From an uncultured Pseudomonadales bacterium (GTDB lineage: Bacteria > Patescibacteriota > Microgenomatia > UBA1400 > PJMF01), in assembly GCA_964449995.1 (NCBI GenBank), contig CAYVBW010000001.1:1618-65617 (forward strand): a stretch of DNA of 64,000 bases. The letters run 5' to 3'. The notes beneath the pieces are model-generated. The model had not been told where the DNA came from and searched no databases. It was given only the letters and a program-made list of their open reading frames with translations. Below, piece after piece: positions 1-19,108 of the stretch (position 1 is the stretch's first letter; every line of letters starts with the position of its first letter). The position numbers and the translations under genes were made by a program.

Positions 1-325
1 ATCCGCCATATTCCGGGTGAGAGTCCTACAACCCCACGTAAAACGTGGTTTGGGCTTTTCCCTGTTCGCTCGTCGCTTACTAAGGGAATCTCTTACGATT
101 TCTTTTCCTCCGGGTACTAAGATATTTCAGTTCCCCGACTTACCTCCGTGCCGTAAACGGCACAGTCGTTTTGCTTTCACAAAACGGGGTTTCCCCATTC
201 GGACACCGACGGGTTAAGCGCTTTTTGCCAGCTAACCGTCGACTATCGCGGGCTATACGTCCTTCATCGGCCAAACAAGCCTAGGCATCCACTTTCTACA
301 TTAGTTCACACAAATATTTGATATT
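1..325 (-). rRNA. rrl: 23S rRNA, 5' domain (partial; gene continues beyond window start)
   Basis: Reverse complement reads ...GTGGATGCCTAGGC...GATGAAGGACGT...CGAATGGGGAAACC...GGGGAACTGAAATATCTTAGTACCCGGAGGAAAAGAAATC, i.e. universally conserved 23S 5'-domain blocks; exact 5' end (~310-330) approximate. Confidence 0.85.
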
Positions 326-484
326 GAATTGAAATTGAACTATTTTGACGATGTTATCTTCACATGTTAAAGAGCGATGCTACTTTTTATATATTTTTCG
401 CTCTGGCGGCGCTTTGCGCCGAGATCGCTCAAAATATTAAAAAGATAGCTTTAATTTAGTAACTTTTTTAAAAAAGTTACCTTG

Positions 485-558
485 TGGACCTGGGGAGATT
501 CGAACTCCCGATCTCTTCGTTGCAAACGAAGCGCTTTAGCCAACTAAGCCACAGGCCC
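485..558 (-). tRNA. tRNA-Ala (anticodon UGC)
   Basis: Reverse complement GGGCCTGTGGCTTAGTTGGCTAAAGCGCTTCGTTTGCAACGAAGAGATCGGGAGTTCGAATCTCCCCAGGTCCA folds as cloverleaf; G3:U70 Ala identity pair; anticodon loop TTTGCAA; sits in the spacer position 5' of 23S on the same strand; no encoded CCA. Confidence 0.85.
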
Positions 559-1318: not shown

Positions 1319-1402
1319 ACTCTCATCTTCGCTATACTAAGTTAAGTAGGTTTCCTGCCCTTTAAACCTCAAGGTAGGTAGTATTAAAATGCTTTTTATT
1401 TC

Positions 1403-4400
1403 ATGGCTAGCAAAAAGAAGAATATTTCCTATATTTTAAATAAAGTAGTTAAAGGTATTTTGTCTATAGCTAACTATATAGGGACTGCCTTTATACAAGT
1501 AGTATTGTGGATAGCTGAAGTTATTTGGTGGATAATAAAAAGCTTAGTAATGCTAATAGTAGCTTTGCCTAGTTTATTTAAGAAAAATAAAAGTAATAGA
1601 ACTGTATTTAAAAAGGCTTCTTCTAGATCAAGGACTGCCAATCCTTTGCTCAAGCCCTTTGCTGATAAAGATATGAGAAGAAAACTCTTGCCTGGACTGG
1701 TGGTAGTATTACTATTTTTAGTAGGCTTTGCAGTTTATAGCCTAAGACAAGCACAGGAAACAGAAGCACACTGGTGGGATGAGACGTGGCTTTATAGGAG
1801 GGCGATTCAAATTAGCAATGATAATGGGGAGGATTTAGAAGACTTTCAAGTAGCTATAACCCTAGATACAGCTGCACTAATAGCTGAGGGGAAAATGCAA
1901 GCAACCTGTGATGATTTAAGGATAACTGATGGAAATGGTAATTTAACCCCTTATTGGGTTCAGTCAAATCCTGGCTGTGATGATGAAAATACCCTTGTTT
2001 GGATAAAATTACCTATTATTTATGATGGTGAAGGTAATACTACTATCTATCTTTACTACGGCAATGCTTCTGCTGAAACCAAGAGTAATAATTCATGGAT
2101 GCCTACAGGAGGCACAATAACAGAATTAACTGATGGATTAGTTCATGCTTTTACTGAAGATGATTCTTTTGAAACACAAACCAACCTAATGGCTGATGTG
2201 TTAGTGGTAGCGGGGGGTGGGGGTGGAGGGAAAAGACACGGAGGAGGTGGAGGTGCAGGAGGATTGGTTTATGAAAATAATTATAGTATTTCTATTGGAA
2301 ATCATACTATGACTGTTGGTGGAGGTGGGGCAGGCGCTGGTCCAGGCTCTAGTCCGACATCAGCAGAAAACGGTGAAAATTCAGAAGCATTTAATTTAAT
2401 CGCTATAGGCGGTGGAGGTGGGGGTTCCTACAATGCTGATGGAGGGGGTACTTCTGCAGAAAACCTTGCTGGAAGCGACGGAGGGTCTGGTGGTGGTGGG
2501 GCCACAAATTCCGGATTCGGTGGATCTGGTACTCCTAACCAAGGAAATGATGGAGGAACTCCAGATACCTCATCTTGGCCAGGAGCTGGTGGAGGTGGAG
2601 CTGGAAGCGCAGGCGAGCCCAACTCTGGAATTACAGGTGGTAGCGGCGGTAGTGGATTATATTTTGGAAACATTTTTGGGGATAGTTTTGGAGAAAACGG
2701 ATTTTTTTCAGGAGGAGGCGGTGGAGCGGCAGGTGGAACCTCTGCAGACAATAACGGTCAAGGTGGTGTGGGAGGGGGGGCTGATGGCTCTGAAGGAGAT
2801 TTACAAGGCAAAGATGGTCAAGTCAATACTGGTGGAGGCGGAGGTGGAGTCAGATCATCATCTTCAGTGGCAAGTATTACTGGAGGAAACGGCGGTTCCG
2901 GGATTGTTTTAATGAAATATCCTACTGAGGACACTCCAAGTATAGAAACAATAGCTACAGAAGAAATCTCCCCCGGCCCGGTGGCGTATTGGAAATTTGA
3001 TGAGGGAACGGGAACAACAGCACATGATTCTAGTGGGCAAGGGAATAATGGAACGCTAATAAATAGTCCCACTTGGCAAACAGAAGACATGTGTGTAGCT
3101 GGGAAATGTTTGAAGTTTGATAGAGCTTCTAGTAATTATATCTCTAATACAACTGGGATAACTCTTCAAAATGATTTCAGTTATTCTGCTTGGGTAAAAA
3201 CTGATGAATCAATAAACGCGATAAGGGGTATTGTTAGCAACCACCATCATCCCAATCCTTGCTATGGCGCATCTTTAAATTTACACGGCTCGCGCTTCAG
3301 GCTTTATGTTGGTGATGGAATGGACAATAGACCAAATTTCACTTTTGGACCCAATATTGAGATTAACCAATGGTATTATGTATCTGTGGTGTACGATAGT
3401 GGCACTTTTCATTTTTACGTAAACGGCACTAAAACAAACGAAACTTGGACAACAACAGTAGCGCAAAACAGCACCAATTTTGTAATAGGAAGATGGGCCC
3501 CTTCTTATGGAGATTACTACTTTAACGGCCTCATCGATGAAGTCAAAGTCTATCCCTACGCCCGCACCGCTGAACAAATCAAAGATGACTACGCTGCTGG
3601 CATAGCTGGTATTGGAGCAGCCAAAGGTACCACCGCCCTATTTGGCAGCACTAAAGCTGATTTTAAACCTACAGACATAACTGGTAATGTTTTGTGGCTA
3701 GACGCCACCGCTATTTTTGAATTAAACGATAACGATTTAGTCGAAATTTGGCACGATCAAAGTGGAAGTGGTAATCACGCTACACAGTCAGTAACAGAAA
3801 ATCAGCCTGCCTATAAAACTAATGTCGTTGAAAACAAGCCAGCAATTAAATTCAACACTAATAAAGTTCTATCTTTACCAACCGAAATTATTCATGATAT
3901 ACCTGGCGCCTCAGTATTTACTGTTGTGAAATACGAAAGTCTTGGTTCTTCAGACAAAACTGTTTTGTATGCTGACAGAAGCGGAAGCGGAACAGGTGGT
4001 CCTATTGTTATTCGAACAAATACTAATAGTAAATATAACCTTGGTAGCCGCAGACGTTCAGGAGAAACTTTCCATAATGCTCTTTCGAGTAATGACGCCA
4101 CCACAAATTGGGGTATGCAAGTAGGCATTTTTGACTACCTTAACAGATCAATGATGCAATTCATTAATGGGACTCTTGATGGAGAAGTCTCAACTGCTTG
4201 GGGAGACCCTGATTTAAATAGTACTTTTACAGACACAAACAGAAGATTTGACTTAGGAGCTAGAGGAACAACTCTTTTTCTTGAGGGCTATATTGCCGAA
4301 ATCATCATTTACAACACCTCTCTTTCTGAACATGATCGACAAAGAGTTGAGGGTTATTTATCACATAAATGGGGATTATCCGAAGATTTACCCATCGAAC

Positions 4401-6538
4401 ATCCTTATAAAAACTCGCATCCTCAAAGTGCAGCCACTAGATTGCGAGATCCAGTTGCCTACTGGCGTTTTGATGAGGGGTATGGAACAACTACGCATGA
4501 TTCTGTTGGAAACAATCATGGATCATTAAGTGGCACAACATTGCCCGAATGGATAAACGAAGGAAAAATTGGGAAAGCTTTGGCTTTTGATGGAGATTAT
4601 ACTGATTGGCAAGACCATCATATCCATACTAACTTTAGTCAAATTACAGATTATCCTTTTACAATAACTGTTTGGGCAAAAAACCATAGCCCAAATGATA
4701 CAAGAATTGCGATCTCATTATATAGAAGTGCTACTCAATATTTTTCTTTAGGGGCTTCCTCTGGAAAATGGACTATACAGGCCAGAAACACTTCTAATAG
4801 GTCCACTAATTCTTCCGTTAACGCAACACAAGACTGGACATTTTTGGTTGCTGTCTTTAATTCTTCAACACACAGGGAGCTCTACGTGAACGGAGCAAAG
4901 GAAGGAGAGGATAGTCAAGAGGTTCCTTACACAGACCCCACATCAATTTACATTGGAAAACAAAGGCCCGTAGCAGTTGATTATGGCCATGGACCTTTGG
5001 CCTGGGATGGCCTTATCGACGAAGTCAAAATTTACAACGTTGCCCTCAGCCCAGAAGAAATCCTCCAAGACTACAATCAAGGTGCTGCCGCCGTCATGGG
5101 TGCTATGGGCACCGACGACTCCGGCAATCCCACTCAAACCGCCTCTGCCGAGTACTGCATTCCCGGCGACAGTTCCCACTGTGCTCCGCCGGTAGCAAGA
5201 TGGGATTTTGAAGAAGGAAGTGGAACAACTACCCATGATAGAAGTGGAAATAACAATCATGGGACATTAGTTAACAATCCCACTTGGATGACCGGAAAGG
5301 TGGGAAAGGCGTTGGGGTTTGATGGAAGCGACAGCTACATTAACTCTGGGATAGACGAAAGCTTACAAATTCAAGATGAGATTACAATATCTGCTTGGAT
5401 AAAAATAAAAGGAGATAGTGGGGGTAGTTATTCTGGTATTGTATCAAATACTCCTGCCTCATCTCAATTTAATTATCTACTAGGAATTAAGGACCAAAAC
5501 GATAACCCAGTTGCATCTTTCCAGCATAGTAGTGTAGAAAGGCTAGCTCATTCTCAATCTCTTGAAAGAAATAAGTGGTATTTTTTAACAATGGTAGTGG
5601 ATAGTTCTCACATACATCTTTATGTAAATGGTAGTAATCCAGAATCAATATCTAAAGGGAGCACTAATTATACATGGAACGATACCATTATTGGAACTTT
5701 CAGAACTAATTATTTTAACGGCATCATCGACCAAGTCCGCATTTACGACTACGCCCGCACGCCTGCTCAAATCGCCTGGGATTATAATCGCGGCGCTCCA
5801 GTTGGCCACTGGAAGTTTGACGAATGCCAAGGCACAACTGCTCACGATGCTTCCGGCAACGAAAACCATGGGACAATAAATATTGGAGCTACTGGCTCCC
5901 AGACCTCTGCCGGCACCTGTGCTTCGGGTAATTCCGCTCATGCCTGGTATAACGGCAGAGAGGGACGGATAAACAGTGCTATGAGTTTTGATGGAGCGGA
6001 TGATTATGTGGATTTAGGAGTTGAAACATTCAGCTACATTAATAATCGAAACCCCGTTTCTGTCCTTGCTTGGGTAAATACAACAAATAGAGAACAAAGC
6101 TTCGCCGGAATTTTTTCAAAATCCCAAGGAGGTTCTACTACAGCAGTGAGGTTTGACCTTCATTATTATTTTGCAGGAGAAGTTCTTCATCTGCGACAAA
6201 GCATTGGCGACGGATCGAGTACGACTAGTTTGGCCAGAGATATAAATTGGGTGAATAATAACGAGTGGCATTTAGTCGGCATGACATGGAATGGGGAAAG
6301 TATGAAATTATTTTTAGATGGTAAACAATTAGGCAATTCTGCAACTATCAACCTAGATATTGGACTGTCAACTGCTAGTTGGAAAATTGGCAGAGCTTTT
6401 AATTCTTCGTCTTATTCTTTCCCAGGCCTCATCGACGACGTTCGCATCTATAACTACGCCCTCACTGAATATCAAATCAAGCTCCTCCACAACGAAGGAG
6501 CAGCAGTTAGATTCAGCAACCAATTTCCCTTTCCCTAA
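1403..6538 (+). CDS. giant (1711 aa) membrane-anchored surface protein: N-terminal TM helices, DUF2341-like domain, ~330-aa Gly-rich low-complexity region, then at least five LamG/Laminin_G_3 (concanavalin A-like lectin) repeats
   Basis: Two N-terminal hydrophobic helices; WWDETWLYRRAIQI...DFQV...YYGNASA resembles DUF2341; repeated module starts VAYWKFDEGTGTTAHDSSGQGNNGTL / VAYWRFDEGYGTTTHDSVGNNHGSL / VARWDFEEGSGTTTHDRSGNNNHGTL / VGHWKFDECQGTTAHDASGNENHGTI and module ends GLIDEVKVYPYARTAEQI / IDEVKIYNVALSPEEI / IDQVRIYDYARTPAQI / IDDVRIYNYALTEYQI typical of Laminin_G_3. Confidence 0.7.
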   Translation: MASKKKNISYILNKVVKGILSIANYIGTAFIQVVLWIAEVIWWIIKSLVMLIVALPSLFKKNKSNRTVFKKASSRSRTANPLLKPFADKDMRRKLLPGLVVVLLFLVGFAVYSLRQAQETEAHWWDETWLYRRAIQISNDNGEDLEDFQVAITLDTAALIAEGKMQATCDDLRITDGNGNLTPYWVQSNPGCDDENTLVWIKLPIIYDGEGNTTIYLYYGNASAETKSNNSWMPTGGTITELTDGLVHAFTEDDSFETQTNLMADVLVVAGGGGGGKRHGGGGGAGGLVYENNYSISIGNHTMTVGGGGAGAGPGSSPTSAENGENSEAFNLIAIGGGGGGSYNADGGGTSAENLAGSDGGSGGGGATNSGFGGSGTPNQGNDGGTPDTSSWPGAGGGGAGSAGEPNSGITGGSGGSGLYFGNIFGDSFGENGFFSGGGGGAAGGTSADNNGQGGVGGGADGSEGDLQGKDGQVNTGGGGGGVRSSSSVASITGGNGGSGIVLMKYPTEDTPSIETIATEEISPGPVAYWKFDEGTGTTAHDSSGQGNNGTLINSPTWQTEDMCVAGKCLKFDRASSNYISNTTGITLQNDFSYSAWVKTDESINAIRGIVSNHHHPNPCYGASLNLHGSRFRLYVGDGMDNRPNFTFGPNIEINQWYYVSVVYDSGTFHFYVNGTKTNETWTTTVAQNSTNFVIGRWAPSYGDYYFNGLIDEVKVYPYARTAEQIKDDYAAGIAGIGAAKGTTALFGSTKADFKPTDITGNVLWLDATAIFELNDNDLVEIWHDQSGSGNHATQSVTENQPAYKTNVVENKPAIKFNTNKVLSLPTEIIHDIPGASVFTVVKYESLGSSDKTVLYADRSGSGTGGPIVIRTNTNSKYNLGSRRRSGETFHNALSSNDATTNWGMQVGIFDYLNRSMMQFINGTLDGEVSTAWGDPDLNSTFTDTNRRFDLGARGTTLFLEGYIAEIIIYNTSLSEHDRQRVEGYLSHKWGLSEDLPIEHPYKNSHPQSAATRLRDPVAYWRFDEGYGTTTHDSVGNNHGSLSGTTLPEWINEGKIGKALAFDGDYTDWQDHHIHTNFSQITDYPFTITVWAKNHSPNDTRIAISLYRSATQYFSLGASSGKWTIQARNTSNRSTNSSVNATQDWTFLVAVFNSSTHRELYVNGAKEGEDSQEVPYTDPTSIYIGKQRPVAVDYGHGPLAWDGLIDEVKIYNVALSPEEILQDYNQGAAAVMGAMGTDDSGNPTQTASAEYCIPGDSSHCAPPVARWDFEEGSGTTTHDRSGNNNHGTLVNNPTWMTGKVGKALGFDGSDSYINSGIDESLQIQDEITISAWIKIKGDSGGSYSGIVSNTPASSQFNYLLGIKDQNDNPVASFQHSSVERLAHSQSLERNKWYFLTMVVDSSHIHLYVNGSNPESISKGSTNYTWNDTIIGTFRTNYFNGIIDQVRIYDYARTPAQIAWDYNRGAPVGHWKFDECQGTTAHDASGNENHGTINIGATGSQTSAGTCASGNSAHAWYNGREGRINSAMSFDGADDYVDLGVETFSYINNRNPVSVLAWVNTTNREQSFAGIFSKSQGGSTTAVRFDLHYYFAGEVLHLRQSIGDGSSTTSLARDINWVNNNEWHLVGMTWNGESMKLFLDGKQLGNSATINLDIGLSTASWKIGRAFNSSSYSFPGLIDDVRIYNYALTEYQIKLLHNEGAAVRFSNQFPFP

Positions 6539-6594
6539 TCCCGATACCTTCCCTTAACCAGCCCTTATAAAACCTTTATAAAAAACCACCCAAT

Positions 6595-7131
6595 TTAAGC
6601 TGCTTCCATTCTTTTTTCTGCTGCTGCATATTCTGCTGTAATTTTTTTAAAAAATTGCATTAAAAAGCCATTTTCTGGAATTGGATTACTAGGGTTGTCA
6701 AATATAGCACCACTCTTAACTAAAAATTTATCTAGCTCTTGATTTGCCAAATTTCTCAACTCTGCGTCTGTCTGCCTCATCCCATATCTAATCAACCAAT
6801 ACTCTACAACTAACCCTAAATTACCCTCAGGGTCAATTAATAACTGCTCTATTTCTTGCTTTAATGCTTTTCTTTTGGGATCTGCTAGCTCCTTATCCTT
6901 CTCTAAACTTAATAAAAATTCACTAGCAAATTCATCTAAAAAAATTTTAAACTCTGTATATAGCTCTTGCGAAATGGGTTCAATTTTTGCCTGAAATTCT
7001 TCAGACACAGAAAATAAAGAGTTTGAAAAAAAATCAATTGGAACATCAGGGGTAAGCCAAAATTGTTCTTCTCTATTAATTTTGGCCACTGCTCTTTGAG
7101 GACGCGATAACTCTCTTTCTTGAGAGTTCAT
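6595..7131 (-). CDS. hypothetical protein
   Basis: 178-aa ORF, no recognised motif. Confidence 0.4.
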   Translation of the reverse strand: MNSQERELSRPQRAVAKINREEQFWLTPDVPIDFFSNSLFSVSEEFQAKIEPISQELYTEFKIFLDEFASEFLLSLEKDKELADPKRKALKQEIEQLLIDPEGNLGLVVEYWLIRYGMRQTDAELRNLANQELDKFLVKSGAIFDNPSNPIPENGFLMQFFKKITAEYAAAEKRMEAA

Positions 7132-7172
7132 GTTTTAGTTATATTTATTAATCTATAATTCTATCAATACAA

Positions 7173-7841
7173 TTACTCTACACTCTCCAACTTAACTCCA
7201 ATTTTTTCTAACACTTTTCTATTCTTTTCTGCCACTTCTTCTCCTAAAACTCCTCCTTTTTGTGCTACTAATTTTAAAGGAACCTTGCTTATCTTTTGAT
7301 AAAATTCCACCTGCTGTTTAATAACTTTTTCTACCAATGGTTTTTTGGCTTCATTCACCCAATCTGCTGAGATTAAATATTGACCCAAATTATAAACTTG
7401 TTCACCTCCACCTAAAGTAAAACAAATTTTGTTTGCCAAGTGCATGCCTTTGGGGCGAACCATGTGCCCTTTAATTCCAAATTCCAGTTCTTTTGGGTCT
7501 TCAAATTCTAAGAAACCTGTATAAAGTAGTTTTTCTTGATCCGCCAAAGCTTGAATATGTTGCTGAGCCATGGCGTTAATCTCATCCCAATCCTTCAACT
7601 CAAGTTTTTCTTTGATCCAATCACTCTGAGAAGAAGCGGCAATATTTATTTTTCCTGGAAATAGTTTGTCTAAAATTTTTACCACCTCACTAAAACCATC
7701 CAGCTCATACCCAGATCCTGCAAAACCAAGACGAATGCCTTCGTTAATCTGCACGCCTTCATCACTATCAGTGATGACATATCTTGAAGGGGTGTTTTGT
7801 TTTGCCATGTTAAAAAATTCTTTAATATCAGGGCAGAGCAA
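7173..7841 (-). CDS. hypothetical protein
   Basis: 222-aa ORF, no recognised motif; true start may be the internal MAKQNT. Confidence 0.4.
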   Translation of the reverse strand: MLCPDIKEFFNMAKQNTPSRYVITDSDEGVQINEGIRLGFAGSGYELDGFSEVVKILDKLFPGKINIAASSQSDWIKEKLELKDWDEINAMAQQHIQALADQEKLLYTGFLEFEDPKELEFGIKGHMVRPKGMHLANKICFTLGGGEQVYNLGQYLISADWVNEAKKPLVEKVIKQQVEFYQKISKVPLKLVAQKGGVLGEEVAEKNRKVLEKIGVKLESVE

Positions 7842-7872
7842 AAAATAACTGACAATTTTATCTAGCTAATCA

Positions 7873-8025
7873 TTATTCAACCATTGACTGTACTGCCTGC
7901 AGATATTGCTTCATTTCTTGTTCTACCTTTTCCCAATCTCCTTCAGCTTCACGAATAGCATTAAATAACAAGTCCATATCTATTAATAGCTGATCATCAG
8001 TGACAATCATTCTCTGTTTAGCCAT
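7873..8025 (-). CDS. possible small acidic protein (50 aa, MAKQRMIVTDDQLLIDMDLLFNAIREAEGDWEKVEQEMKQYLQAVQSMVE)
   Basis: Hand-translated short ORF below the ORF-track length cutoff; fills otherwise empty intergenic space. Confidence 0.25.
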   Translation of the reverse strand: MAKQRMIVTDDQLLIDMDLLFNAIREAEGDWEKVEQEMKQYLQAVQSMVE

Positions 8026-8230
8026 AAGCTTATTATATCATGCAAGGGAGGGGAAAGACAGGCAGGGGGGCTGTGGTGGGAGTTTGTGGTGTCTGGTATT
8101 TAGTATTGGAGGGTTACGGTATTTAGTATTTGGTATTTGGTATAACAACCAGAGTGGTTGATTTACCTTAAGTGGCATTGAAAAAAACTAATTGTTTGTT
8201 AACCTTGTTAGGTATTGATACCAAATACCA

Positions 8231-9766
8231 CTATTTATACCCCATGGGCACTTCGGTCAGCACTAAGCTCAAACTCATGCGTCGTTTCTCAGGATCCACA
8301 CTGTCTACATTAACCGTCACCTCATCACCAACCTTTAGCTTGTTTTCAGGACTTAATTTACTAACGTGAATTAAGCCATCTACGCCTGGTAAAACATCCA
8401 CAAAAGCTCCAAAAGGCTCTACTCTAGAAATCTTCCCGGTAAAAGTTGTGCCTGGAGGATAGTCTTCAGCTACTTTTTGCCAAGGATCCTTTTTCAAGCG
8501 TTTTATAGATAAATTAAGCTTGCCTGATTTTTGATCAATGCCCAACACTTTAACCAGCACTCTATCCCCAACCCGGTGGTAGTTTTTGGGGTGATCAACT
8601 TTTTCCCAACTAATTTCTGAGATATGAATTAGACCCTCAACATAACCAATGCTCTCCGAAGGTAGACTATCTTTGGAGCGATGCTCGGGTTTGAGTTCTC
8701 CTTCTTCTACTTTTTCACTCAAATCACTGCCGTCAATTGGCACCTCTACAGTCATAAACAAGCCAAAACCCTTAACTCCTGAAATCACGCCCTCATAAAC
8801 ATTGCCTTCTTTAACTGCTGATAATGCCTGTTGCTGTTGGTTGAGCTGTTTTTCCTCGCTGACATGTCTTTCTGAAAAAATCAGGCGGTTGCGTTCCCGA
8901 TCAACCTCAATAGCGCGTACTTCAAACTTTTTATCCTTTAGGTCATCAATATGATCCAAATAACGCCTGCTGAATTGACTGGAAGGTACAAAACCTCTCA
9001 CTCCATTAACTACAGCAATTAAGCCACCTTTGTTAGCTTCAATTCCCTTAGCCTCTAAAGTGACTTCGTTATTAAATGCATCTTCAAAAAATTCCCACTT
9101 GGCATCATTGGCGGCACCTTTAAGACTTAAAAGAATTTGACCTCGGTTGTTTTCAACTGAAATAACTGTTGCTTCAATTTTGTCATCTACCTCCAATTCT
9201 TGAATATAATCTTGAGCAAAATCAAATTCCTGCTCAGCAATGACTCCAAAACTTTTGGCATTGATATCTAGCTTAACCATTTTGTCAGTCTTCTCTACGA
9301 TCACACCCTCAATTTTTTTCCCTACCTGAGGGACAACTGACTCATAACCAGTCATTTCCATTAATTCCTCCATAGTTTGAGGCTTAGGTCCTGATCTTGC
9401 TTGTTGGGTTAGTGAATCTTCTTTAGAAGTTTGAGAAGCATTAGAAGATTTAGCGGTCTTTGTTTCTTTTTTGTCTTTAGTAGGTTTCTTTTCTGCTTGC
9501 TTGGGTGATTTTTTTTCTTTAGCAGCAGCTTTTTTATCAGACTTTTTTTCAGTTTTAGAACTAGAACTCTTAGCAGTTTTTTTTACTTCTTGTTCCTTAG
9601 TAGACTTTTTTTTACCTGTGGCTGCTTTTTTTTGAGTTTTTTTAGTTTGTTTTTTTGAGCTGGCTGATGTTTTTTTGTCTATCTTTTTTGTTTCTTTATC
9701 TTTATCAGTTTGTTTTTGTTTAGCCTGAGCTTGTTTTTTTTCTGTTGTTTTGCTTTTTATGGCCAT
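8231..9766 (-). CDS. rpsA: 30S ribosomal protein S1-like (multiple S1 domains) with a ~130-aa lysine-rich low-complexity N-terminal extension
   Basis: Repeated S1-domain signatures (GVIVEKTDKMVKLDINAKSFGVI; GNVYEGVISGVKGFGLFMTV; GTTFTGKISRVEPFGAFVDV; GDRVLVKVLGIDQKSGKLNLSIK); N-terminus K/T/S-rich. Confidence 0.7.
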   Translation of the reverse strand: MAIKSKTTEKKQAQAKQKQTDKDKETKKIDKKTSASSKKQTKKTQKKAATGKKKSTKEQEVKKTAKSSSSKTEKKSDKKAAAKEKKSPKQAEKKPTKDKKETKTAKSSNASQTSKEDSLTQQARSGPKPQTMEELMEMTGYESVVPQVGKKIEGVIVEKTDKMVKLDINAKSFGVIAEQEFDFAQDYIQELEVDDKIEATVISVENNRGQILLSLKGAANDAKWEFFEDAFNNEVTLEAKGIEANKGGLIAVVNGVRGFVPSSQFSRRYLDHIDDLKDKKFEVRAIEVDRERNRLIFSERHVSEEKQLNQQQQALSAVKEGNVYEGVISGVKGFGLFMTVEVPIDGSDLSEKVEEGELKPEHRSKDSLPSESIGYVEGLIHISEISWEKVDHPKNYHRVGDRVLVKVLGIDQKSGKLNLSIKRLKKDPWQKVAEDYPPGTTFTGKISRVEPFGAFVDVLPGVDGLIHVSKLSPENKLKVGDEVTVNVDSVDPEKRRMSLSLVLTEVPMGYK

Positions 9767-9915
9767 AATTATTAATAGTCTCCTTTCATAGAGTTGGGAA
9801 AGTATATCATAATAACTATTTAGTATCTAGTATTTAACAGGCCTTCTTTGATATATTGAGTAAGACAAGTAATTACTTAGGTTGAAAAAAAACTACAAAC
9901 ATATCAAAAAATTAT

Positions 9916-11175
9916 ATGAATTTAAAATCATTATCAAAATTAAATATTAAAAACAAAACTGTTTTGGTGCGCACCGACTATAATGTCCCGCTTAAAAAAA
10001 GAGGTACCAAATATGAAGTGAGTGAAGCCAAAAGAATCATTGATTCACTGCCTGTGCTTAATTTCTTAATCAAAAATCAAGCCAAAATTATATTAATGTC
10101 ACATTTAGGAAGGCCCAAGGGAGAGCCAGATCCAAAGCTAAGTCTTGAACCTGTCGCGAAATATCTAAAAAACAAACATAGTTTTTCTGTAAAGTTTGTA
10201 GGTGAAACAATCGGCGAAAAGGCCACCCAAGCAGCCCAAGAACTTCAACCAGGAGAAATTCTGGTTTTAGAGAACCTGCGTTTCCAACCTGAAGAAAAGA
10301 AAAATGACAAAAATTTTGCTAAAAAACTAGCCTCTTTGGCTGACATTTACATCAACGAGGCTTTTTCTACCTGCCATCGTGCCCATGCTTCTATCGAGGC
10401 CATCACCCACTATCTACCCTCATATGCTGGACCACATCTTAAAAATGAGGTAGATAACTTGTCGCGAATCATGGAAGATCCTAAGCATCCATTTGTAATG
10501 GTAATTGGGGGAGCTAAAATCTCAACCAAAATTGAGGCTGTACAAAACCTGCACCCCATTGCTGAAATTGTGCTGGTAGGTGGCGGAGTGGCCAATAATT
10601 TTTTAAAAGCCGAAGGTATTGAAACCCATAAATCTATTTTAGAAGAAGATATTGAGGTTAAGGGTAAGACCATCACCTATTTAGATCTAGCTAGACAAAT
10701 TGTAGAAGAAAATAAAACAGAGAGAATTTTAAAAGATGATTACATCCCTTTGCCAAAAATCCTAACCCCAATTGATGTGGTGGCAGCCAGAAGTAAAGAT
10801 AGCACAAAAACACAAGTGATTGACCTCTCATCGGGCATGGCCGACACCCCCAATGATAAAGACCTCCAATATCTAGACATTGGACCACGCACCATCAAAC
10901 TGTTTACAGACTTACTGCTCAGGGCTAAAACTATTTACTGGAGCGGTCCTTTAGGAGTTTTTGAACAAAAACCTTTCCAGCAAGGAACTCGTGAGATAGC
11001 ACGGGCTATTGCTAAATCCAGCGCAGAAACTTTTATCGGCGGAGGAGATACTATCGCTGCGGTTAATCAATTTGGTTTTGCTGATAGATTTGATTATGTC
11101 TCCAGCGCCGGCGGAGCTGCTCTAGAATTCTTAGCAGGAAAAAAACTGCCAGGGCTGGAAGCTTTAAAAAGCTAA
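9916..11175 (+). CDS. pgk: phosphoglycerate kinase
   Basis: Full-length PGK similarity incl. LENLRFQPEE, FVMVIGGAKISTKI, hinge and C-terminal GGGDTIAAV nucleotide-binding motifs. Confidence 0.9.
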   Translation: MNLKSLSKLNIKNKTVLVRTDYNVPLKKRGTKYEVSEAKRIIDSLPVLNFLIKNQAKIILMSHLGRPKGEPDPKLSLEPVAKYLKNKHSFSVKFVGETIGEKATQAAQELQPGEILVLENLRFQPEEKKNDKNFAKKLASLADIYINEAFSTCHRAHASIEAITHYLPSYAGPHLKNEVDNLSRIMEDPKHPFVMVIGGAKISTKIEAVQNLHPIAEIVLVGGGVANNFLKAEGIETHKSILEEDIEVKGKTITYLDLARQIVEENKTERILKDDYIPLPKILTPIDVVAARSKDSTKTQVIDLSSGMADTPNDKDLQYLDIGPRTIKLFTDLLLRAKTIYWSGPLGVFEQKPFQQGTREIARAIAKSSAETFIGGGDTIAAVNQFGFADRFDYVSSAGGAALEFLAGKKLPGLEALKS

Positions 11176-11391
11176 ATTTATCAACAATCAACCTATATAT
11201 TAATGTATAGACTAATATATATTAATGAAGCTATCAGATATATAAAAGTTGCAATAGATTTCTGATAAGTGTAATATAAAAATATTGATTAGCCTGTCTA
11301 TGATTGATCGTTCCAGAACTACCAAACTGAGTAAATTTTTTATAAAAACCATAACCACCTGGTAATATGATAGCATGTATTTAAATTAAAA

Positions 11392-12627
11392 ATGTTTTAT
11401 AAAAATCTTATTAAATCTGCCTTAGTTATTTTTCTTTTTTGTTTCTCACTCTTGGGATTATTATTTACTATTAAAGGTGAAGAGTCTTTAGTGATTAGGG
11501 CCAATACCTGCCCACCTTCTTCCTGCGGTGCCGATGGATATTTATGTGCAGGAGATTGCGATTGTAACTGGGATGTGATGAGAGGAGTCAGATGGCACTA
11601 TAAATGTGAAAACGGAAACGTTGTTGCTTACAATGAATTTGACAGTAGTTGTGATAGCGCTTGCGGCGATCAATCAACTCCGGCACCAGGAGATTGTACT
11701 CCAAGAAAAACTTATTCAGGAGCAACTACCCCTGGATACGACTGTGCTGAAGGTTCAAATGCTAGTGTAACAGTGACTGCTTGTATCCCAGAAGGCTGCC
11801 CTACTAACGGAGCCTCTGTAACTTATGGTCTTGCCATTGCCCACTGCGCTGGAGAAGGTTGGGCCAACTGTGGCGGAGCTTGCGGAGAAGCAGAGCAACC
11901 AAGAACATTAAATATTCCTTCAGGTCAAAGATGTGCAAGTGCAACCCATAGCTGTAGCCCTCCCGATGCCTGTGGAACATGTCAGGTTGACATTGACGGC
12001 TATGGAGTCCGCAGGTGGCAAGATAGCGGATGTGCGGTTCCCCCTACTAGCACTCCTAAACCACCAGAGCCCACAGCAACACCTATACCAACAGAACCAA
12101 CAGACGTTCCACCCCCTGCGCCTCAATGCAATAGTATTAGTATGTATGTTGACAACCAACAATTAGCTCCTAATCAGCTAGGCTCAATTGAACCAGGAGA
12201 AGTAGTAAGATTTAAGTGTGGTGCCAATAATTTTATGCCAACTACAGATTACTATGAATTTAAAATTTTTGACGGTCAAGATCCCAATCCATGGAAAACA
12301 ATAACTGCTGAATCAAATGATCCTGAATTTTCGCAAGAATATCAACTCTCTGAAAATCTTTTTGGCAACTATCTTGCCCAATGCAGAGTTTGCAGAGAAG
12401 GTCAATGCCAAGAATGGGAAGTCTTGCCTAGTGATGTAAGCCCTCCAAAAACAATTAAAGCAACTCCAACCCCAACCTTACCACCAGGTGATATAAATCT
12501 CTGTGCACCCCCTGAATGTGGGGTTAGAGAATTTGAATGTATTGCTACTGAAACCCTAGAATGCCTAAGAGATAGTGAGGGAGAATGCTCGTGGCAATGT
12601 GTCCCAATTGGCTATGAAACAATGTAA
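11392..12627 (+). CDS. secreted cysteine-rich protein (signal peptide, ~35 Cys, Pro/Thr linker)
   Basis: N-terminal hydrophobic signal; dense Cys pattern; PT-rich segment TSTPKPPEPTATPIPTEPTDVPPPAP. Confidence 0.5.
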   Translation: MFYKNLIKSALVIFLFCFSLLGLLFTIKGEESLVIRANTCPPSSCGADGYLCAGDCDCNWDVMRGVRWHYKCENGNVVAYNEFDSSCDSACGDQSTPAPGDCTPRKTYSGATTPGYDCAEGSNASVTVTACIPEGCPTNGASVTYGLAIAHCAGEGWANCGGACGEAEQPRTLNIPSGQRCASATHSCSPPDACGTCQVDIDGYGVRRWQDSGCAVPPTSTPKPPEPTATPIPTEPTDVPPPAPQCNSISMYVDNQQLAPNQLGSIEPGEVVRFKCGANNFMPTTDYYEFKIFDGQDPNPWKTITAESNDPEFSQEYQLSENLFGNYLAQCRVCREGQCQEWEVLPSDVSPPKTIKATPTPTLPPGDINLCAPPECGVREFECIATETLECLRDSEGECSWQCVPIGYETM

Positions 12628-12629
12628 TT

Positions 12630-13757
12630 ATGAATATTGATCCAAACTCAAAAAACCAGCCGAAGAGTACACCGCCCAATACAGAGGCTAATAAGGGTCA
12701 GGCTCAGCCAACTGCTAATCCTGCTAATCCCGCTAATCAGCCAGCCCACTTAACTCAGTCGAATAAAGATTTTACTTTTGATGCTTTTGCTGGCGAACAA
12801 GCTTCTGAGAAATCTCAAGCTCCTCAAGCAACCAGTCAAACCACTACTGGTGGTCAAAACCAAGTTAGTTCTAAAAACGAAACTCAACCCGAGCCATCAA
12901 CTCAATCAACTCAACAGCCTGCTCCAATTCAAGAACCGCCTCTTAAACTGCCTCCCAATCAGAAAAGTCTTAAAGGAGCTGGTTCTGCTTTCAATTTAAA
13001 ACCCAAAGAAGCCAAGCCAGACACTTCTAGTGAGAGTTCGGATACACCCCCAATAAAAACTTTCAAAAAACGAACTAGCAAGAAAAAAAAGAATTTATTG
13101 ATTATTTTAGCGTTTATTATCCTATTAATTGCTGGAGGAGGTCTATTTTATTTCATTAGGATCATGCCTGAGGTAGAGGTGCCAACAGTACCAGTCTCAC
13201 TACCAGAAGCTGTTGATGATCTACCTTGTACCTTGATGTTTACCGTATTGGAGCCCACACCAGAACCAACTGTTACTCCAGACCCCACCGTGACTCCAGA
13301 CCCTACTGTAACGCCAGATCCCACTGTCACCCCAGACCCAACTATTACACCAACAACCACTGCTACCCCAAGCGCTACTCCTACTGTAACTACAACCGCA
13401 ACACCTAGCGCTACCGCTACTCCAACAACAGTTATTGAACCAACACAGCCACCCTATTCAACTCCTCTGCCAACACAACCAGGAGAACCTCAAGTATATG
13501 TGGTTGACACTAAGGCGGAATGTAACGAAGCCTGTGCCACCAATGCTGACTGCAAGAATATCAGTCACATCTGTTACAACGGAGTTTGTCGCCTAGATAT
13601 TAATCCTGAAGACGAACAGTGCCGTACTCCAGAAGGTGAAACTTTTGTGGAAAGAGTTGTAGAAACCCCAGTGGCTGGACCCGCTGACTGGCTCAACTAC
13701 CTAAGAATTGGTATTAGTGTAATTGGAGCAGGATTATTGCTACTCCTCTTCTTATAA
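12630..13757 (+). CDS. membrane-anchored Pro/Thr-repeat protein with Cys-rich ectodomain and C-terminal hydrophobic anchor
   Basis: Disordered Q/P-rich N-terminus, TM helix (LLIILAFIILLIAGGGLFYFI), 5x PTVTPD tandem repeat, Cys-rich block ECNEACATNADCKNISHICYNGVCRLD, C-terminal WLNYLRIGISVIGAGLLLLLFL. Confidence 0.5.
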   Translation: MNIDPNSKNQPKSTPPNTEANKGQAQPTANPANPANQPAHLTQSNKDFTFDAFAGEQASEKSQAPQATSQTTTGGQNQVSSKNETQPEPSTQSTQQPAPIQEPPLKLPPNQKSLKGAGSAFNLKPKEAKPDTSSESSDTPPIKTFKKRTSKKKKNLLIILAFIILLIAGGGLFYFIRIMPEVEVPTVPVSLPEAVDDLPCTLMFTVLEPTPEPTVTPDPTVTPDPTVTPDPTVTPDPTITPTTTATPSATPTVTTTATPSATATPTTVIEPTQPPYSTPLPTQPGEPQVYVVDTKAECNEACATNADCKNISHICYNGVCRLDINPEDEQCRTPEGETFVERVVETPVAGPADWLNYLRIGISVIGAGLLLLLFL

Positions 13758-13864
13758 GCAAAAACATCTTCTTTGAATTTTTTTGGATTGAGCTTAATAA
13801 ATTTTCCACTTAAGCATATTCTAAAACCACTTGGTTGAATGATATAATAATCACTCACAATACC

Positions 13865-13938
13865 GCGCGCGTAGCTCAATTGGTTAGAGCACCAAGCTTA
13901 TACCTTGGCGGTTCTTGGTTCGAGTCCAAGCGCGCGCA
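13865..13938 (+). tRNA. tRNA with anticodon UAU (Ile-type, AUA decoding)
   Basis: GCGCGCGTAGCTCAATTGGTTAGAGCACCAAGCTTATACCTTGGCGGTTCTTGGTTCGAGTCCAAGCGCGCGCA; 7-bp acceptor stem, GTTCGAGTC T-loop, anticodon loop CTTATAC. Confidence 0.75.
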
Positions 13939-13980
13939 CTATCTATATAATAAAAGAATACTATTGTTATTAAAAAACGT

Positions 13981-15054
13981 ATGATCAATCAGATTTTTAA
14001 CTTCATTAAAACCCGCTACAAAATTATCATCGCAGCTGTTGTCATAATAATTTTTGCTGTTTTCTTCATTTCTCGCAGCCAGCCCTCTCAACCAGATCAA
14101 AACTTTGAACATCCCCAATACCGAGATATAACCAAAACCCTAGAGGTATCTGGCAGAGTTGATGCCAAACACCGTGCTAGATTAAGATTTTTAGCTGGAG
14201 GTGAAGTTGTGTATTTAGGCTTTCAAGAAGGAGACTGGATTAATAAGTGGCAAACCATAGCCACCATAGACCAGCGCGATCTACAGAAACGTCTTGAAAG
14301 AAGCTTAAATCTTTATATGCAGCAACGCTGGGACTGGGAGGATCTTCAAGATGAAATTAAAGATGAGGCTCTGAACACTTCAGAACTTCGCTATGTTGAT
14401 AAACAACAATGGACCCTGGATAACACAGTCATTGATGTTGAAATTCAAGACATAGCTATTTCTCAAAGTGTAATGTCAGCTCCTTTTTCAGGAATTTTGG
14501 TGCATCAACCAATCAACACCCCCCATGTTCAAGTGACTGGTAATGATTATTTCGAGATTGTGAACCCTCAGTCTTTAGTTTTTAAAGCAGAGATTAATGA
14601 GGGTGATATTGCTCTAATTACTCTTAATCAGCCAGCTAGAATAATCTTGGATGCCTTTCTTGATGAAGAAATCTCTACTAAGGTTAATTATATTTCCTAT
14701 GTTAGTACTCAATCAGTGGGAGATAACGTCTTTATAGTTGAATTTCCCCTAGCAGAAGAAGGTTTGATGGACAATTCCCTATCTAATCAAAATTTGGGTC
14801 AAAACTTACTCAATAAATATAGATTAGGGATGAGTGGAGATGCGCTTATTGAGCTGGAAACAAAAACCAATGTTTTAACTATTCCTCTAATCGCTACCAA
14901 ATATAGAGACGGCAAGGTTTATGTAGATATCAAAACTAATGATGATCAAATTGAGGAAAGAAGAATAGAAGTAGGACTAGAAACTGACGAGTATGCTGAG
15001 GTAATTTCTGGCTTGAGCGAAACAGATTTGGTATTAATCCCAAGTGCTTTCTAA
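13981..15054 (+). CDS. efflux periplasmic adaptor subunit (HlyD/MacA family) with N-terminal TM anchor
   Basis: N-terminal TM, coiled-coil middle region, immediately upstream of and co-oriented with MacB-type ATPase and permease genes. Confidence 0.55.
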   Translation: MINQIFNFIKTRYKIIIAAVVIIIFAVFFISRSQPSQPDQNFEHPQYRDITKTLEVSGRVDAKHRARLRFLAGGEVVYLGFQEGDWINKWQTIATIDQRDLQKRLERSLNLYMQQRWDWEDLQDEIKDEALNTSELRYVDKQQWTLDNTVIDVEIQDIAISQSVMSAPFSGILVHQPINTPHVQVTGNDYFEIVNPQSLVFKAEINEGDIALITLNQPARIILDAFLDEEISTKVNYISYVSTQSVGDNVFIVEFPLAEEGLMDNSLSNQNLGQNLLNKYRLGMSGDALIELETKTNVLTIPLIATKYRDGKVYVDIKTNDDQIEERRIEVGLETDEYAEVISGLSETDLVLIPSAF

Positions 15055-15063
15055 ATTCTTTGC

Positions 15064-15795
15064 ATGAAAAAAAAGGCTGATAAGTCTCAAACACAACCAA
15101 TCTTAGAGCTGATAAATGTCTGTAAAGACTATCAACTAGGAACCCAAACCATAAAAGCTTTGGACAATATTAACTTCAGCATCCAAGAAGGACAGTTTAC
15201 ATCAATTATTGGTCCATCTGGCTCAGGAAAGTCTACTTTTCTTCAGGTAGCAAGTATTTTGGCAGAACCCTCCAAGGGGGAAATTAAACTCAAAGGTAAA
15301 GACGTGACTCAATACAATGAGGTAGAGCGAGCTCGTCTGCGCAATAAAGAAATTGGGTTTGTTTTTCAACAGTTCAATTTGTTAGCTCGCACCAGTGCAC
15401 TTGATAACGTAGCTCTTCCACTAGTATATGCTGGCGTTGATTTAATTCAAAGACATCAAGAGGCTGAAAAAATTTTAACAAAATTTGGTCTAGGTGATCG
15501 TTTAAAAAATAAACCCAACGAACTTTCTGGAGGCCAACAGCAAAGAGTAGCCATTGCTAGAGCCTTAATTAATAATCCCAGTATTCTGTTTGTAGATGAG
15601 CCAACCGGAAACCTAGACTCCAAAAGCGGCCAAGAGGTAGAAAACATCTTAAAACAACTTCATCAAGAAGGAAGGACGATTATTTTAGTTACTCATGAAC
15701 CCAAGTTAGCTAAAATAGCTCAAAAAATCATTAGTTTAGAGGACGGGAAAATAATCGGAAAGCACACTCCTCCATACAAAGATCTAAAAAACTAA
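15064..15795 (+). CDS. ABC transporter ATP-binding protein (MacB/LolD type)
   Basis: Walker A GPSGSGKST, Q-loop, signature LSGGQQQRVAIARAL, Walker B ILFVDEPTGNLD, H-loop VTHE. Confidence 0.9.
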   Translation: MKKKADKSQTQPILELINVCKDYQLGTQTIKALDNINFSIQEGQFTSIIGPSGSGKSTFLQVASILAEPSKGEIKLKGKDVTQYNEVERARLRNKEIGFVFQQFNLLARTSALDNVALPLVYAGVDLIQRHQEAEKILTKFGLGDRLKNKPNELSGGQQQRVAIARALINNPSILFVDEPTGNLDSKSGQEVENILKQLHQEGRTIILVTHEPKLAKIAQKIISLEDGKIIGKHTPPYKDLKN

Positions 15796-15797
15796 AC

Positions 15798-17015: not shown

Positions 17016-17047
17016 TGTGAATAGTTAGAGTTTGCTATACTAAGTTT

Positions 17048-17380
17048 ATGAAATTAATTGGGAAAATTTTAATCACTGCTGGAATCATTCTTGCAATTTT
17101 ATACGCAATTTATTTTGCCGGTACTCAAGGTTGGTTAAAAAACACCCCGCTTAAAAATCTTGACTATGAACAATTAAACTTTTTTAGTCAAGAAAGTGCT
17201 GAGCAAACCAAAGTTTTAACCGAAAGAGCCAAGGAAACTGGAGAACATGTTCAGCATATACTAGGCGACAAAGTAGAAGTTGATGAAGAAAGAAAAGAGA
17301 AAGCACTTCATGAAAAAACTATTGAATATGCTCGATATTTATACTGTAAACAAGTAGTAACAGATTGGGAAAAAGAATAG
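17048..17380 (+). CDS. hypothetical small membrane protein
   Basis: N-terminal TM helix; no motif. Confidence 0.4.
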   Translation: MKLIGKILITAGIILAILYAIYFAGTQGWLKNTPLKNLDYEQLNFFSQESAEQTKVLTERAKETGEHVQHILGDKVEVDEERKEKALHEKTIEYARYLYCKQVVTDWEKE

Positions 17381-17410
17381 TTTAATTGAAATTTGGCCAA
17401 AATTGTCTCG

Positions 17411-17971
17411 CTACTCTTTGCAACAATCTAAAGCTTTTTGAACTAACTCACTCATCTTTTCAAAAATACTAACAGAACCTTTAACTTTTGGCTTTTTGTC
17501 TTCGCTGACAAACTCAATATCTTTTTTATCTTTAGTTTCTGCTTTTACGTCCTTTACCTTGACCGCTCCCAAATTCAAACCCCAAAACAAACTATACAAC
17601 TGATAAGATTTTTTAAATAAATCCTCAGCATCCTTATTGTCTCCCTTGGTTAAAGATTTAGTACCCACTTCCATTAGACGCATAGAGGCGGCTAATAAAT
17701 GTTTGCTAATACACCAAACCTCACCCTCATAATCTTTAATGATACGCTTGAGCAAATCTTTGCGCATCTCCCTAACCTCACTTAATAAGTCTAAATACTT
17801 TTTGTCCTGAGTTTTGCCGTAAGTAAAGAAAAAATGCTCTTCCATTGAAATTAAGTTCATAATTCCAATTGAAAGATCTTCCCCTGAAGACAAATCCAGC
17901 TGATGACCTTTCTCCATTTTTTTAACTTTATCTAAAAATTGTTGAATATCATCTTGTTTAACTTTTGGCAT
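17411..17971 (-). CDS. hypothetical protein
   Basis: 186-aa ORF, charged, no motif. Confidence 0.4.
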   Translation of the reverse strand: MPKVKQDDIQQFLDKVKKMEKGHQLDLSSGEDLSIGIMNLISMEEHFFFTYGKTQDKKYLDLLSEVREMRKDLLKRIIKDYEGEVWCISKHLLAASMRLMEVGTKSLTKGDNKDAEDLFKKSYQLYSLFWGLNLGAVKVKDVKAETKDKKDIEFVSEDKKPKVKGSVSIFEKMSELVQKALDCCKE

Positions 17972-18017
17972 ATTGTTTAAAGCTTAATTTATAAATTAAC
18001 AAATAAATGATAGATAA

Positions 18018-19059: not shown

Positions 19060-19108
19060 ATTTTTAGTAAAATCATATTATGAACAAGCGTTCATATATT
19101 TTCAAGAG

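Follow-up and report, generated by a model that had tools for sequence, protein, structure and literature searches.

We examined a gene for a predicted giant surface protein on contig CAYVBW010000001.1, within a 64-kb stretch of DNA that was analyzed as a whole and is called the window here. The gene, at 1403..6538 (+), is one unbroken open reading frame (ORF) of 1711 codons with an ATG start and with the stop codon included in these coordinates, as the initial annotation of this DNA had it. Every module of the modular 1711-aa product is intact and in frame, one of its laminin G (LamG) modules, the second, falling below the Pfam threshold when scanned alone. The sequence motifs quoted in that annotation are all present in the translation, and the gene does adjoin an rRNA locus: the 5' end of the 23S rRNA lies at 1–315 (-) and tRNA-Ala(TGC) at 484–558 (-). 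The upstream tRNA-Ala/23S locus is transcribed divergently from the giant gene and the first downstream ORF (6595..7131, -) convergently with it, so that the giant gene is a stand-alone transcription unit without an operon partner. No further giant paralogue was found within the window by tblastn.

A search of 5.8 billion clustered proteins, in which 8,000 word-sharing candidates were scored, returned at least 1282 homologues at E <= 1e-10 among those candidates. The best match shows 41% identity over 42% of the query. Named matches belong to Levybacteria, WS6, 'Patescibacteria group', Minisyncoccia, Aenigmarchaeota, Pacearchaeota and Thermoplasmata, which agrees with the earlier statement that DUF2341 combined with LamG is typical of surface proteins of archaea and ultra-small bacteria. 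The combination, with or without a glycine-rich segment, is typical of the candidate phyla radiation (CPR)/Patescibacteria, DPANN and other archaea. Among representative genomes, most of those with a relative of the protein come from Patescibacteria of the Microgenomates group (Shapiro-, Levy-, Davies-, Woese-, Roizman-, Ames- and Chisholmbacteria), to which WWE3 is added. The host of the gene is a Patescibacterium, probably of the Microgenomates group.

The architecture and the proposed role of CPR and DPANN giants of the DUF2341/LamG type are already known. LamG/ConA-like surface proteins have been proposed as attachment factors in both groups (PMC10266531, PMC11310336), and a surface or adhesin role is the prevailing proposal for such giants (PMC10266531, PMC11310336, PMC11809585). 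Three Levybacteria giants (P0004, P0007 and P0006) have the same order of parts as the present protein: a basic extension, one TM (transmembrane) or signal helix, an AxA-like site, DUF2341, Gly_rich_2 and several Laminin_G_3 domains. P0004 and P0007 are collinear with the query over aa ~99–1702 and ~100–1467, respectively, with 29–31% full-length identity. Compared with giants of this Levybacteria type, the present protein has an extra putative hairpin at aa 19–60 that is confined to its closest relatives.

A Kyte-Doolittle scan found two hydrophobic segments near the N-terminus, aa 19–60 (1457..1582, +) and aa 91–118 (1673..1756, +; MRRKLLPGLVVVLLFLVGFAVYSL). The second gives the strongest peak (2.46) and would be the main transmembrane (TM) segment or signal-peptide h-region. 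The first, which is 77–97% identical at the amino acid level in the related contig L003, lies between two Lys/Arg-rich segments, the first 18 residues and the loop at aa 61–94. By the positive-inside rule, aa 19–60 probably forms a membrane hairpin and aa 91–118 exports the remainder of the protein. The two N-terminal TM helices of the initial annotation are therefore an approximation, in that both segments are hydrophobic and aa 19–60 is long enough for a hairpin. Beyond these two segments the scan gave no TM candidate, and the C-terminus, seven residues past LamG module 5, has neither a hydrophobic stretch nor an anchor.

Directly after the main helix is an AxA-like site, TEA|H at aa 119–122. 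Homologues share this design: their basic extension varies, and it is followed by a single strong helix, then a small-x-Ala site and the W(W/F)(D/N)xxWxYR start of DUF2341. An alanine stands two residues before the DUF2341 tryptophan in 23 of 26 homologues, and position -3 is A, V, T or S in 24 of them. Judging from these sequence features, the protein would be either a signal-anchored ectoprotein or one released by signal peptidase. The h-region proper (aa 95–114) begins about 90 residues from the N-terminus. A twin-arginine translocation (Tat) signal was considered for the M-R-R-K preceding the helix and rejected, since homologues do not keep the arginine pair and since the pair is 90 residues away from the N-terminus.

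The extracellular part begins with a membrane-proximal beta-sandwich, the DUF2341 domain, at aa 122–235 (1766..2107, +). Pfam family PF10102 scores 50.2 bits at aa 169–230 (gathering threshold 23.4), and the W(W/F)(D/N)xxWxYR and YYGN motifs are present. Laminin_G_3 (PF13385, threshold 27.6 bits) gives 313.8 bits across five stretches of the protein, so that the Pfam scan finds both families that had been predicted. Module 1 spans aa 522–735 (2966..3607, +; 95.4 bits alone, with opening and closing motifs present), module 3 aa 1013–1240 (4439..5122, +; 78.5 bits), module 4 aa 1259–1462 (5177..5788, +; 89.1 bits) and module 5 aa 1463–1704 (5789..6514, +; 81.9 bits, also matching Laminin_G_2). 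These four are 27–37% identical to one another, and each of the DNA repeat families behind the VAYWKFDEG-like opening and the GLIDEV(K/R)IY closing, D1 and D2, has four members. The initial annotation counted at least five LamG modules and five are found, but the motifs said to open and close each of them are limited to modules 1, 3, 4 and 5.

Module 2, aa 745–1012 (3635..4438, +), opens with ITGNVLWLDATA, closes with EGYIAEIIIYNTSLSEHDRQRVEGYLSHKWGL and has the C-terminal motif EGYLSHKWGL. Scanned alone it scores 23.2 bits, under the Laminin_G_3 threshold, and it is barely detectable by BLAST against the other modules (E 0.05 to module 1). It matches phrog_10356 'virion structural protein' (2.5e-25) and phrog_11772, and is probably a divergent ConA-like subtype.

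The profile of TafC (NCBIfam NF052521) matches four LamG modules with its positions 148–366. TafC is a LamG-bearing minor subunit of haloarchaeal Tat-fimbriae for which an adhesive role has been proposed (PMC11821415). The two proteins share the LamG adhesin-type domain. We do not consider the present protein a member of that family: the score is 164.1 bits against an equivalog cutoff of 410 bits, and the N-terminal pilin-like part (TafC 1–146) is unmatched. In contrast to TafC, the present protein also lacks a conserved twin-arginine signal and a taf gene cluster.

The glycine-rich tract

Between DUF2341 and the first LamG module is a glycine-rich tract that we assign to the TG domain, aa 236–521 (2108..2965, +). 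The tract was noted in the initial annotation at a length of ~330 aa; its presence is confirmed and its length is about 286–290 aa (aa 236–521/525). It belongs to the Pfam family Gly_rich_2 (PF21722, gathering threshold 24.3 bits), which scores 69.6 bits over aa 263–506 and covers model positions 16–225 of 226. The isolated segment scores 75.8 bits. Used as a query, the TG segment identified 285 instances in 105 of the 120 retrieved homologues, often several per protein, and 260 of these instances are nearly full length with identical boundaries. The wider family comprises 41,574 cluster representatives at E <= 1e-3 (27,538 at <= 1e-10 and 7,531 at <= 1e-30), with up to 19 copies per protein and proteins of up to 7,335 aa.

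In an alignment of 42 TG instances (alignment A1), 33 of the 36 invariant columns are glycine, and the mean entropy is 0.79 bits at glycine positions compared with 2.39 bits at other positions. AlphaFold2 run on this alignment produced a model with a pLDDT of 92.2 and a pTM of 0.89. The model consists of an N-terminal beta-sandwich, long stretches that DSSP assigns to neither helix nor strand, and a final strand. Domains of a TG-like fold are polyproline/polyglycine-II bundles (PMC13243192). The predicted structure indicates that the tract is a discrete folded module, composed of a TNF-like sandwich and a polyglycine-II bundle, rather than a disordered low-complexity linker, and that it resembles the receptor-binding domains of phage tail-fibre tips.

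The closest solved relatives of the TG fold are receptor- or ligand-binding domains. Among the nearest known counterparts are the cyanophage Pam3 tail fibre gp24 (PDB 7YPX/7YFW) and, from mycobacteriophage Bxb1, the gp33 'tail wing brush' and the gp29 tail spike (9D93). Unlike these, the present protein lacks an N-terminal alpha-helical domain for trimerization or baseplate docking, neither a fibre chaperone gene nor phage genes lie near its gene, and its TG domain is an internal module of a putatively membrane-anchored cellular protein. Sequence similarity to Pam3 is at E ~1: as a single sequence the TG segment had no match in the PDB, and as a profile it gave only non-significant matches (E 0.1–1.3), the Pam3 fibre included. 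The structural match to the TG/GRD ligand-binding domain of ALK/LTK (PDB 7LIR, 7NX3, 7LRZ) is much weaker than that to the phage domains. The ALK/LTK domain is eukaryotic and belongs to a different Pfam family, and its EGF, MAM and kinase context is not shared by the present protein.

Every module type of the ectodomain has a match in PHROGs, with phrog_8510 'virion structural protein' matching LamG at 2.7e-53 and phrog_2295 matching aa 218–524, across the TG domain, at 5.1e-46. A tblastn search of 50,697 phage genomes with the TG domain found no match, the low-complexity filter probably masking the glycine motifs. CPR and DPANN phages encode ConA/LamG proteins that are thought to act in adhesion (PMC11310336). 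However, no phage genes were found around the giant gene, the neighbors of which are tRNA-Ala/23S, two unannotated ORFs, an S1 protein and PGK. Because of this context and the N-terminus, which has the character of a membrane anchor, the giant is a cellular protein, made up of module types that occur in phages as well. A phage tail fibre or receptor-binding protein was rejected as an identity for the same two reasons, only the receptor-binding-type modules being shared.

The DNA encoding the tract is not repetitive. It had been described as made of repeats prone to slippage and recombination that may generate length variants, and neither part of that description is borne out. Tandem Repeats Finder reports at most GGTGGA x3.2 (19 nt) in the tract, and the longest perfect tandem repeat measures 14 nt there and 15 nt in the remainder of the gene. 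Eight poly-glycine runs, of 4–6 residues each, use a mixture of GGA, GGT, GGC and GGG codons. In L003, the closest relative with a TG domain, this domain is 279 aa long compared with 286 aa here, the glycine runs being kept and the insertions and deletions falling in loops. On these observations slippage, and with it a contingency locus, is rejected. The nested ORFs in the tract at 2412–2912 (+), 2428–2751 (-) and 2818–3090 (-) are artefacts, as had been suggested; their products are low-complexity, either Pro-rich or V/L/E-rich, and have no Pfam hit.

Variation among related contigs

Related giant genes occur on several metagenomic contigs, and two further variants come from sibling metagenomes. 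On L002/L041, L003, L006 and L040 the same gene, dprA, is directly upstream of the giant gene and divergent from it. L017 begins inside the giant gene, so its flank is not covered, and it was grouped with L040 because their giant genes are near-identical. Among L002, L003 and L006 the dprA DNA is 94.9–97.6% identical. The giants of these DprA-linked variants are 84–90% identical in the amino acids of the anchor and 42–49% identical in DUF2341, and the next 250 residues show no detectable similarity. In type A (L002/L041, protein P0001) DUF2341 is followed directly by LamG modules with no extra domain. Type B (L003) has a different version of DUF2341 and then a TG domain. In types C (L006) and D (L017/L040) the TG slot is occupied by a non-glycine domain of ~170–190 aa, which differs between the two types. 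In Pfam scans the replacement domains from L006 and L017 matched no named family, the DUF2341 tail being the sole hit. The type D copy on L040 (Ga0334889_1013554) stops at 534 aa, inside the first LamG module, and may be a pseudogene, a copy with a frameshift or a phase-off variant of this hypervariable locus.

The gene in the window shares with these variants a block extending from -79 to about +420. Blastn identity of 87–91% to the variants on the related contigs sets in abruptly, exactly at 1324. The promoter-proximal or 5' UTR part of this block, 1324..1402 (+), is common to the variant genes of L002, L003, L006, L040 and L041 and is near-invariant in alignment A3. It contains two -10-like sequences, TATACT at 1333–1338 and TAAAAT at 1385–1390, which are consensus matches only and not in excess of the shuffled expectation; the same holds for all hits of the promoter and terminator scans. 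No dprA was found in the window. Because it lies beside tRNA-Ala/23S and dprA is missing there, the window copy is a paralogue or a translocated copy.

Identity between the window gene and L003 is highly uneven. At the amino acid level it is 73–97% in the anchor, 40–62% in DUF2341 and 41–60% in the TG domain, rises to 90% at the junction of TG and LamG1, falls to 17–30% in the LamG1 core and reaches 97–100% at the LamG1 end and linker (aa 721–775). Three conserved junction blocks can be delimited in the DNA. The first, 2957..3120 (+), covers the end of the TG linker and the start of LamG1 (EEISPGPVAYWKFDEGTGTTAHDSSGQGN...); it has 78–88% blastn identity to L002, L003, L006, L017, L040 and L041, and is common to variants whose neighboring domains are unrelated. 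The second, 3521..3713 (+), covers the end of LamG1 and the linker into module 2 and is 99.5% identical to L003 over 193 nt. The third, 5714..6012 (+), covers the end of LamG4 and the start of LamG5 and is 86% identical to L002 over 299 nt. Strain variation is thus real, but it proceeds by whole-domain replacement between conserved junctions and not by change in tract length. The simplest reading of the mosaic pattern is homologous recombination at the conserved junctions, which would swap domain cores or whole domains.

A hypervariable surface protein of a Gracilibacterium offers a comparison. It has one N-terminal TM helix, varies within a near-clonal population, fragments assemblies and has been proposed to act in attachment (PMC6851277). 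The present protein is similar in its CPR host, N-terminal anchor, extracellular remainder and variable locus. However, the Gracilibacterium locus varies by a 9-mer nucleotide repeat (encoding a constant PTD peptide repeat), whereas here whole folded domains are replaced and the DNA is repeat-free.

Three of the contigs, L003, L006 and L017, are 2.6–4.4 kb long and come from JAHKLX01, 'Candidatus Micrarchaeota archaeon MAG 296', a metagenome-assembled genome (MAG). They carry the closest relatives of the window gene and were binned, along with a bacterial-type dprA, into an archaeal MAG, but are probably mis-binned Patescibacterial fragments. This one bin contains two alternative versions of the same locus. 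Contig L001 (GCA_015657915.1, NPIE01000344.1; region 5581–23877) has three tandem giants and two 23S_rRNA_IVP/bAvd-like genes between the ribosomal protein genes S10 and L3, and the tandem paralogues show that the family also expands by duplication.

Small genes for four-helix-bundle proteins of the 23S_rRNA_IVP/bAvd type interleave with or flank the giants of relatives, at 883–1251 in L002, at 282–650 in L003 and, as a third copy in L001, beyond tuf at 23503–23877. The association may reflect a mobile element, the remnant of a diversity-generating retroelement or a hot spot of recombination. Because such genes flank relatives, we considered whether the giant gene is the target of a diversity-generating retroelement, and rejected this. 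The gene shares no repeat of at least 45 nt with other parts of the window, and the window has no bAvd/IVP homologue. Pfam detects no CLec/FGE-sulfatase domain in the giant, and the reverse-transcriptase scan covered only part of the window ORFs.

A heptamer tandem motif, GGTATTT/AGTATTT (e.g., GGTATTTAGTATTTGGTATTTGGTAT), occurs once in the window, at 8085–8143, between the S1 gene and a 222-aa ORF. The same motif recurs between genes at many places in the related contigs, namely in L002 (813–852, 1275–1300, 2604–2629, 10022–10054, 10562–10594 and 11493–11518), L003 (212–251, 674–699 and 1974–1999) and L006 (4–36 and 1312–1373). The motif is probably an intergenic signal or repeat element specific to the lineage. 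Its presence in both the window and the related contigs indicates that the organism of the window is close to those of the contigs.

Possible functions of the protein

To our knowledge, host recognition and attachment by ultra-small CPR and DPANN symbionts is largely unknown, type IV pili being the sole tested factor and in Saccharibacteria only. Giant LamG/DUF2341 proteins are the standard genomic suspects for host attachment and are experimentally uncharacterized. From its folds, topology and variation, we favor with moderate confidence the reading that the protein serves at the surface as a multivalent adhesin or in host recognition, and that it evolves under diversifying selection. It would be placed at the cell surface by its anchor and its DUF2341 beta-sandwich, from which a string of modules for ligand recognition would extend outward, namely the TG domain and the five lectin-type LamG modules. 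In the TG domain, variable distal loops would be presented on a TNF-like sandwich with a polyglycine-II bundle, a fold that in phage tail fibres recognizes host receptors. Such a string could bind surface glycans or polymers on another cell or substrate multivalently, and so serve an ultra-small symbiont in host recognition or attachment. Diversifying selection would act on the ectodomain, where domain cores or whole domains differ while the promoter, anchor and junctions are kept.

This reading accounts for the topology, the two ligand-recognition folds, the lack of enzymatic domains, the variable loops on a fixed glycine scaffold and the domain turnover. It starts from direct results, namely the ORF, its domain composition, the TG fold, the non-repetitive DNA and the mosaic variation at a locus with a 95–98% identical flank. 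Several points weigh against it. Topology, localization, binding function, ligand and recombination mechanism are all inferred. LamG and TG folds also occur outside adhesins, for example in the accessory modules of glycosidases and in the ectodomains of receptors, and the protein may stay anchored or be cleaved and released. Variation is seen on contigs that are short pieces of metagenome assemblies, from MAGs or sibling samples and two of them in one bin, and it is by their shared DprA flank that they are taken for strain variants of a single locus. The copy in the window is at a different locus (tRNA-Ala/23S) and so is a paralogue or translocated copy. Finally, the sequence link to solved phage fibres is non-significant, both for the profile against the PDB (E ~1) and for tblastn against phage genomes (no match).

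Of the other roles that can be envisaged, a pilus-associated one has a precedent in the literature on DUF2341. Proteins with this domain are encoded in archaeal type IV pilus loci, including that of the Methanococcus Epd pili, and a tip-adhesin role has been proposed for them (PMC4858521); transposon insertions that make M. maripaludis defective in transformation hit the DUF2341 gene of the epd locus (PMC10133366); and DUF2341 has been annotated as part of a type IV pilus-like system (PMC11809585). The giant could by analogy be a PilY1-like tip adhesin that acts with the conserved Patescibacterial pili in attachment or DNA uptake, and in related strains its gene does adjoin the competence gene dprA. 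However, that neighbor is divergent in the relatives and not in the window, the giant gene is monocistronic, and the N-terminus, a long extension of basic and hydrophobic character that leads up to a Sec-type AxA-like site, has no class III (prepilin) signal. No PilB, PilC, PilT, PilM or prepilin peptidase was found among the 35 window ORFs scanned, some 30 others, mostly under 200 aa, being unscanned. We therefore regard a pilus adhesin as unlikely. The initial annotation suggested an S-layer-like or adhesin protein, of which the adhesin part agrees with published proposals and the S-layer-like part gained no specific support. CPR cells have surface layers, and a large all-beta protein, secreted or anchored, that lacks enzymatic domains and is encoded beside an rRNA locus in a position that could suit high expression, might be an abundant structural component of the envelope whose LamG and TG domains self-assemble into a lattice. 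A lattice needs conserved self-interaction surfaces, whereas here domain cores and identities differ between strains with a 95–98% identical flank and some genomes have three tandem paralogues of different module sets. No SLH, S-layer or cell-wall-binding domain was detected, and the closest solved relatives of the TG fold bind receptors or ligands, so that a lattice protein is quite improbable.

We give similarly little credence to a secreted scavenger or scaffold that is released after cleavage and captures environmental polysaccharides with no role between cells. The conserved AxA-like site and the lack of a C-terminal anchor would allow release, the LamG_3 and DUF2341-like beta-sandwiches resemble accessory modules of glycoside hydrolases, and the window contains a glycoside hydrolase family 3 gene and a major facilitator superfamily transporter. 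These two genes, however, are ~19 kb away and not co-oriented, and the giant has no catalytic domain. A generic polysaccharide binder would leave whole-domain turnover between near-identical strains without obvious reason, and the conserved N-terminal hairpin before the signal helix suggests a function for the membrane-embedded part. An artefact of assembly, in which near-identical blocks of the gene family gave rise to a chimera or a collapsed repeat, seems to us very unlikely. The related contigs L003, L006 and L017 do break inside the gene, shared blocks are up to 99.5% identical, and similarity to the DprA-linked variants is abrupt at 1324. However, the 5.1-kb ORF is unbroken with its modules intact and in frame, P0004 and P0007 are collinear over the whole architecture, and the gene has no long exact repeat within it. 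With the exception of one 193-nt block, the shared blocks are mostly 78–91% identical and thus too divergent to mislead an assembler.

The adhesin or host-recognition reading leaves the category of the protein as it was. What is new is that the glycine-rich tract is given another interpretation, that slippage is rejected, and that there is evidence for a cassette-type variation with defined conserved junctions. The glycine-rich segment of such giants is predicted to be a well-folded ligand-binding domain of the phage receptor-binding-protein/ALK type and should not be masked as low complexity. Whole-domain turnover of the ectodomain beside a 95–98% identical flank marks the locus as a prime candidate specificity determinant, and the conserved junction and anchor sequences are usable as primers or baits to survey variant repertoires. 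A more speculative extension, which we consider possible but doubtful, is that the conserved promoter, anchor and junctions are the fixed recombination sites of a cassette system that re-targets host specificity in the manner of phage tail-fibre mosaicism. Episymbiotic Patescibacteria would then exchange TG domains, LamG subtypes and other beta-sandwiches between strains, paralogues and possibly phages. What the receptor-binding tip is to a phage, the TG domain would be to the cell, and the locus would determine the host range of the symbiont. Such a junction-guided system would set host range and share modules with phages.

Other genes and repeats in the window

The window fits a Patescibacterial chromosome near the origin, with DnaA, DnaN, VirB4/TraG-like and TrwB-like ATPases, PrgI, mevalonate genes, an ATP-dependent ligase and HlyD/ABC/MacB. 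On the tRNA-Ala–23S side of the giant gene, the 16S rRNA was not found anywhere in the window and is apparently unlinked from this minus-strand locus. The 844-nt spacer at 559–1402 contains a single 110-aa ORF with a TTG start (986–1318, -), which has no Pfam match and is probably spurious. Immediately downstream of the giant gene and convergent with it are the ORFs 6595–7131 (-) and 7173–7841 (-). Both of these, as well as 11392–12627 (+) and 12630–13757 (+), have no Pfam match; the four ORFs encode 178–411 aa.

Parts of an apparatus resembling a type IV secretion system are encoded at two places. A TrwB/coupling-protein-like ATPase is at 20876–23209 (-), and a VirB4/TraG P-loop ATPase and a PrgI-family protein at 59279–61375 (-) and 62779–63801 (-); the latter genes adjoin dnaA/dnaN (56053–59047). 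The set could be a conjugation- or DNA-uptake-type apparatus of potential relevance to symbiont-host exchange. A mevalonate cluster at 42282–45852 (-) consists of genes for a thiolase, an HMG-CoA synthase-like protein and HMG-CoA reductase, and an ATP-dependent DNA ligase is encoded at 28653–30440. The mevalonate pathway and ATP-dependent DNA ligase are archaeal/eukaryote-type functions, here encoded by a bacterium.

Intergenic repeats of 57–67 nt, in direct and inverted orientation and with 84–94% identity, are found at 30451–30514, 32270–32336, 32328–32384, 35305–35361 and 48229–48297. They flank Fic, NAD(P)HX dehydratase and RecF-like genes, one adjoins a class I aminoacyl-tRNA synthetase gene, and they may be repeat elements or shared terminators.

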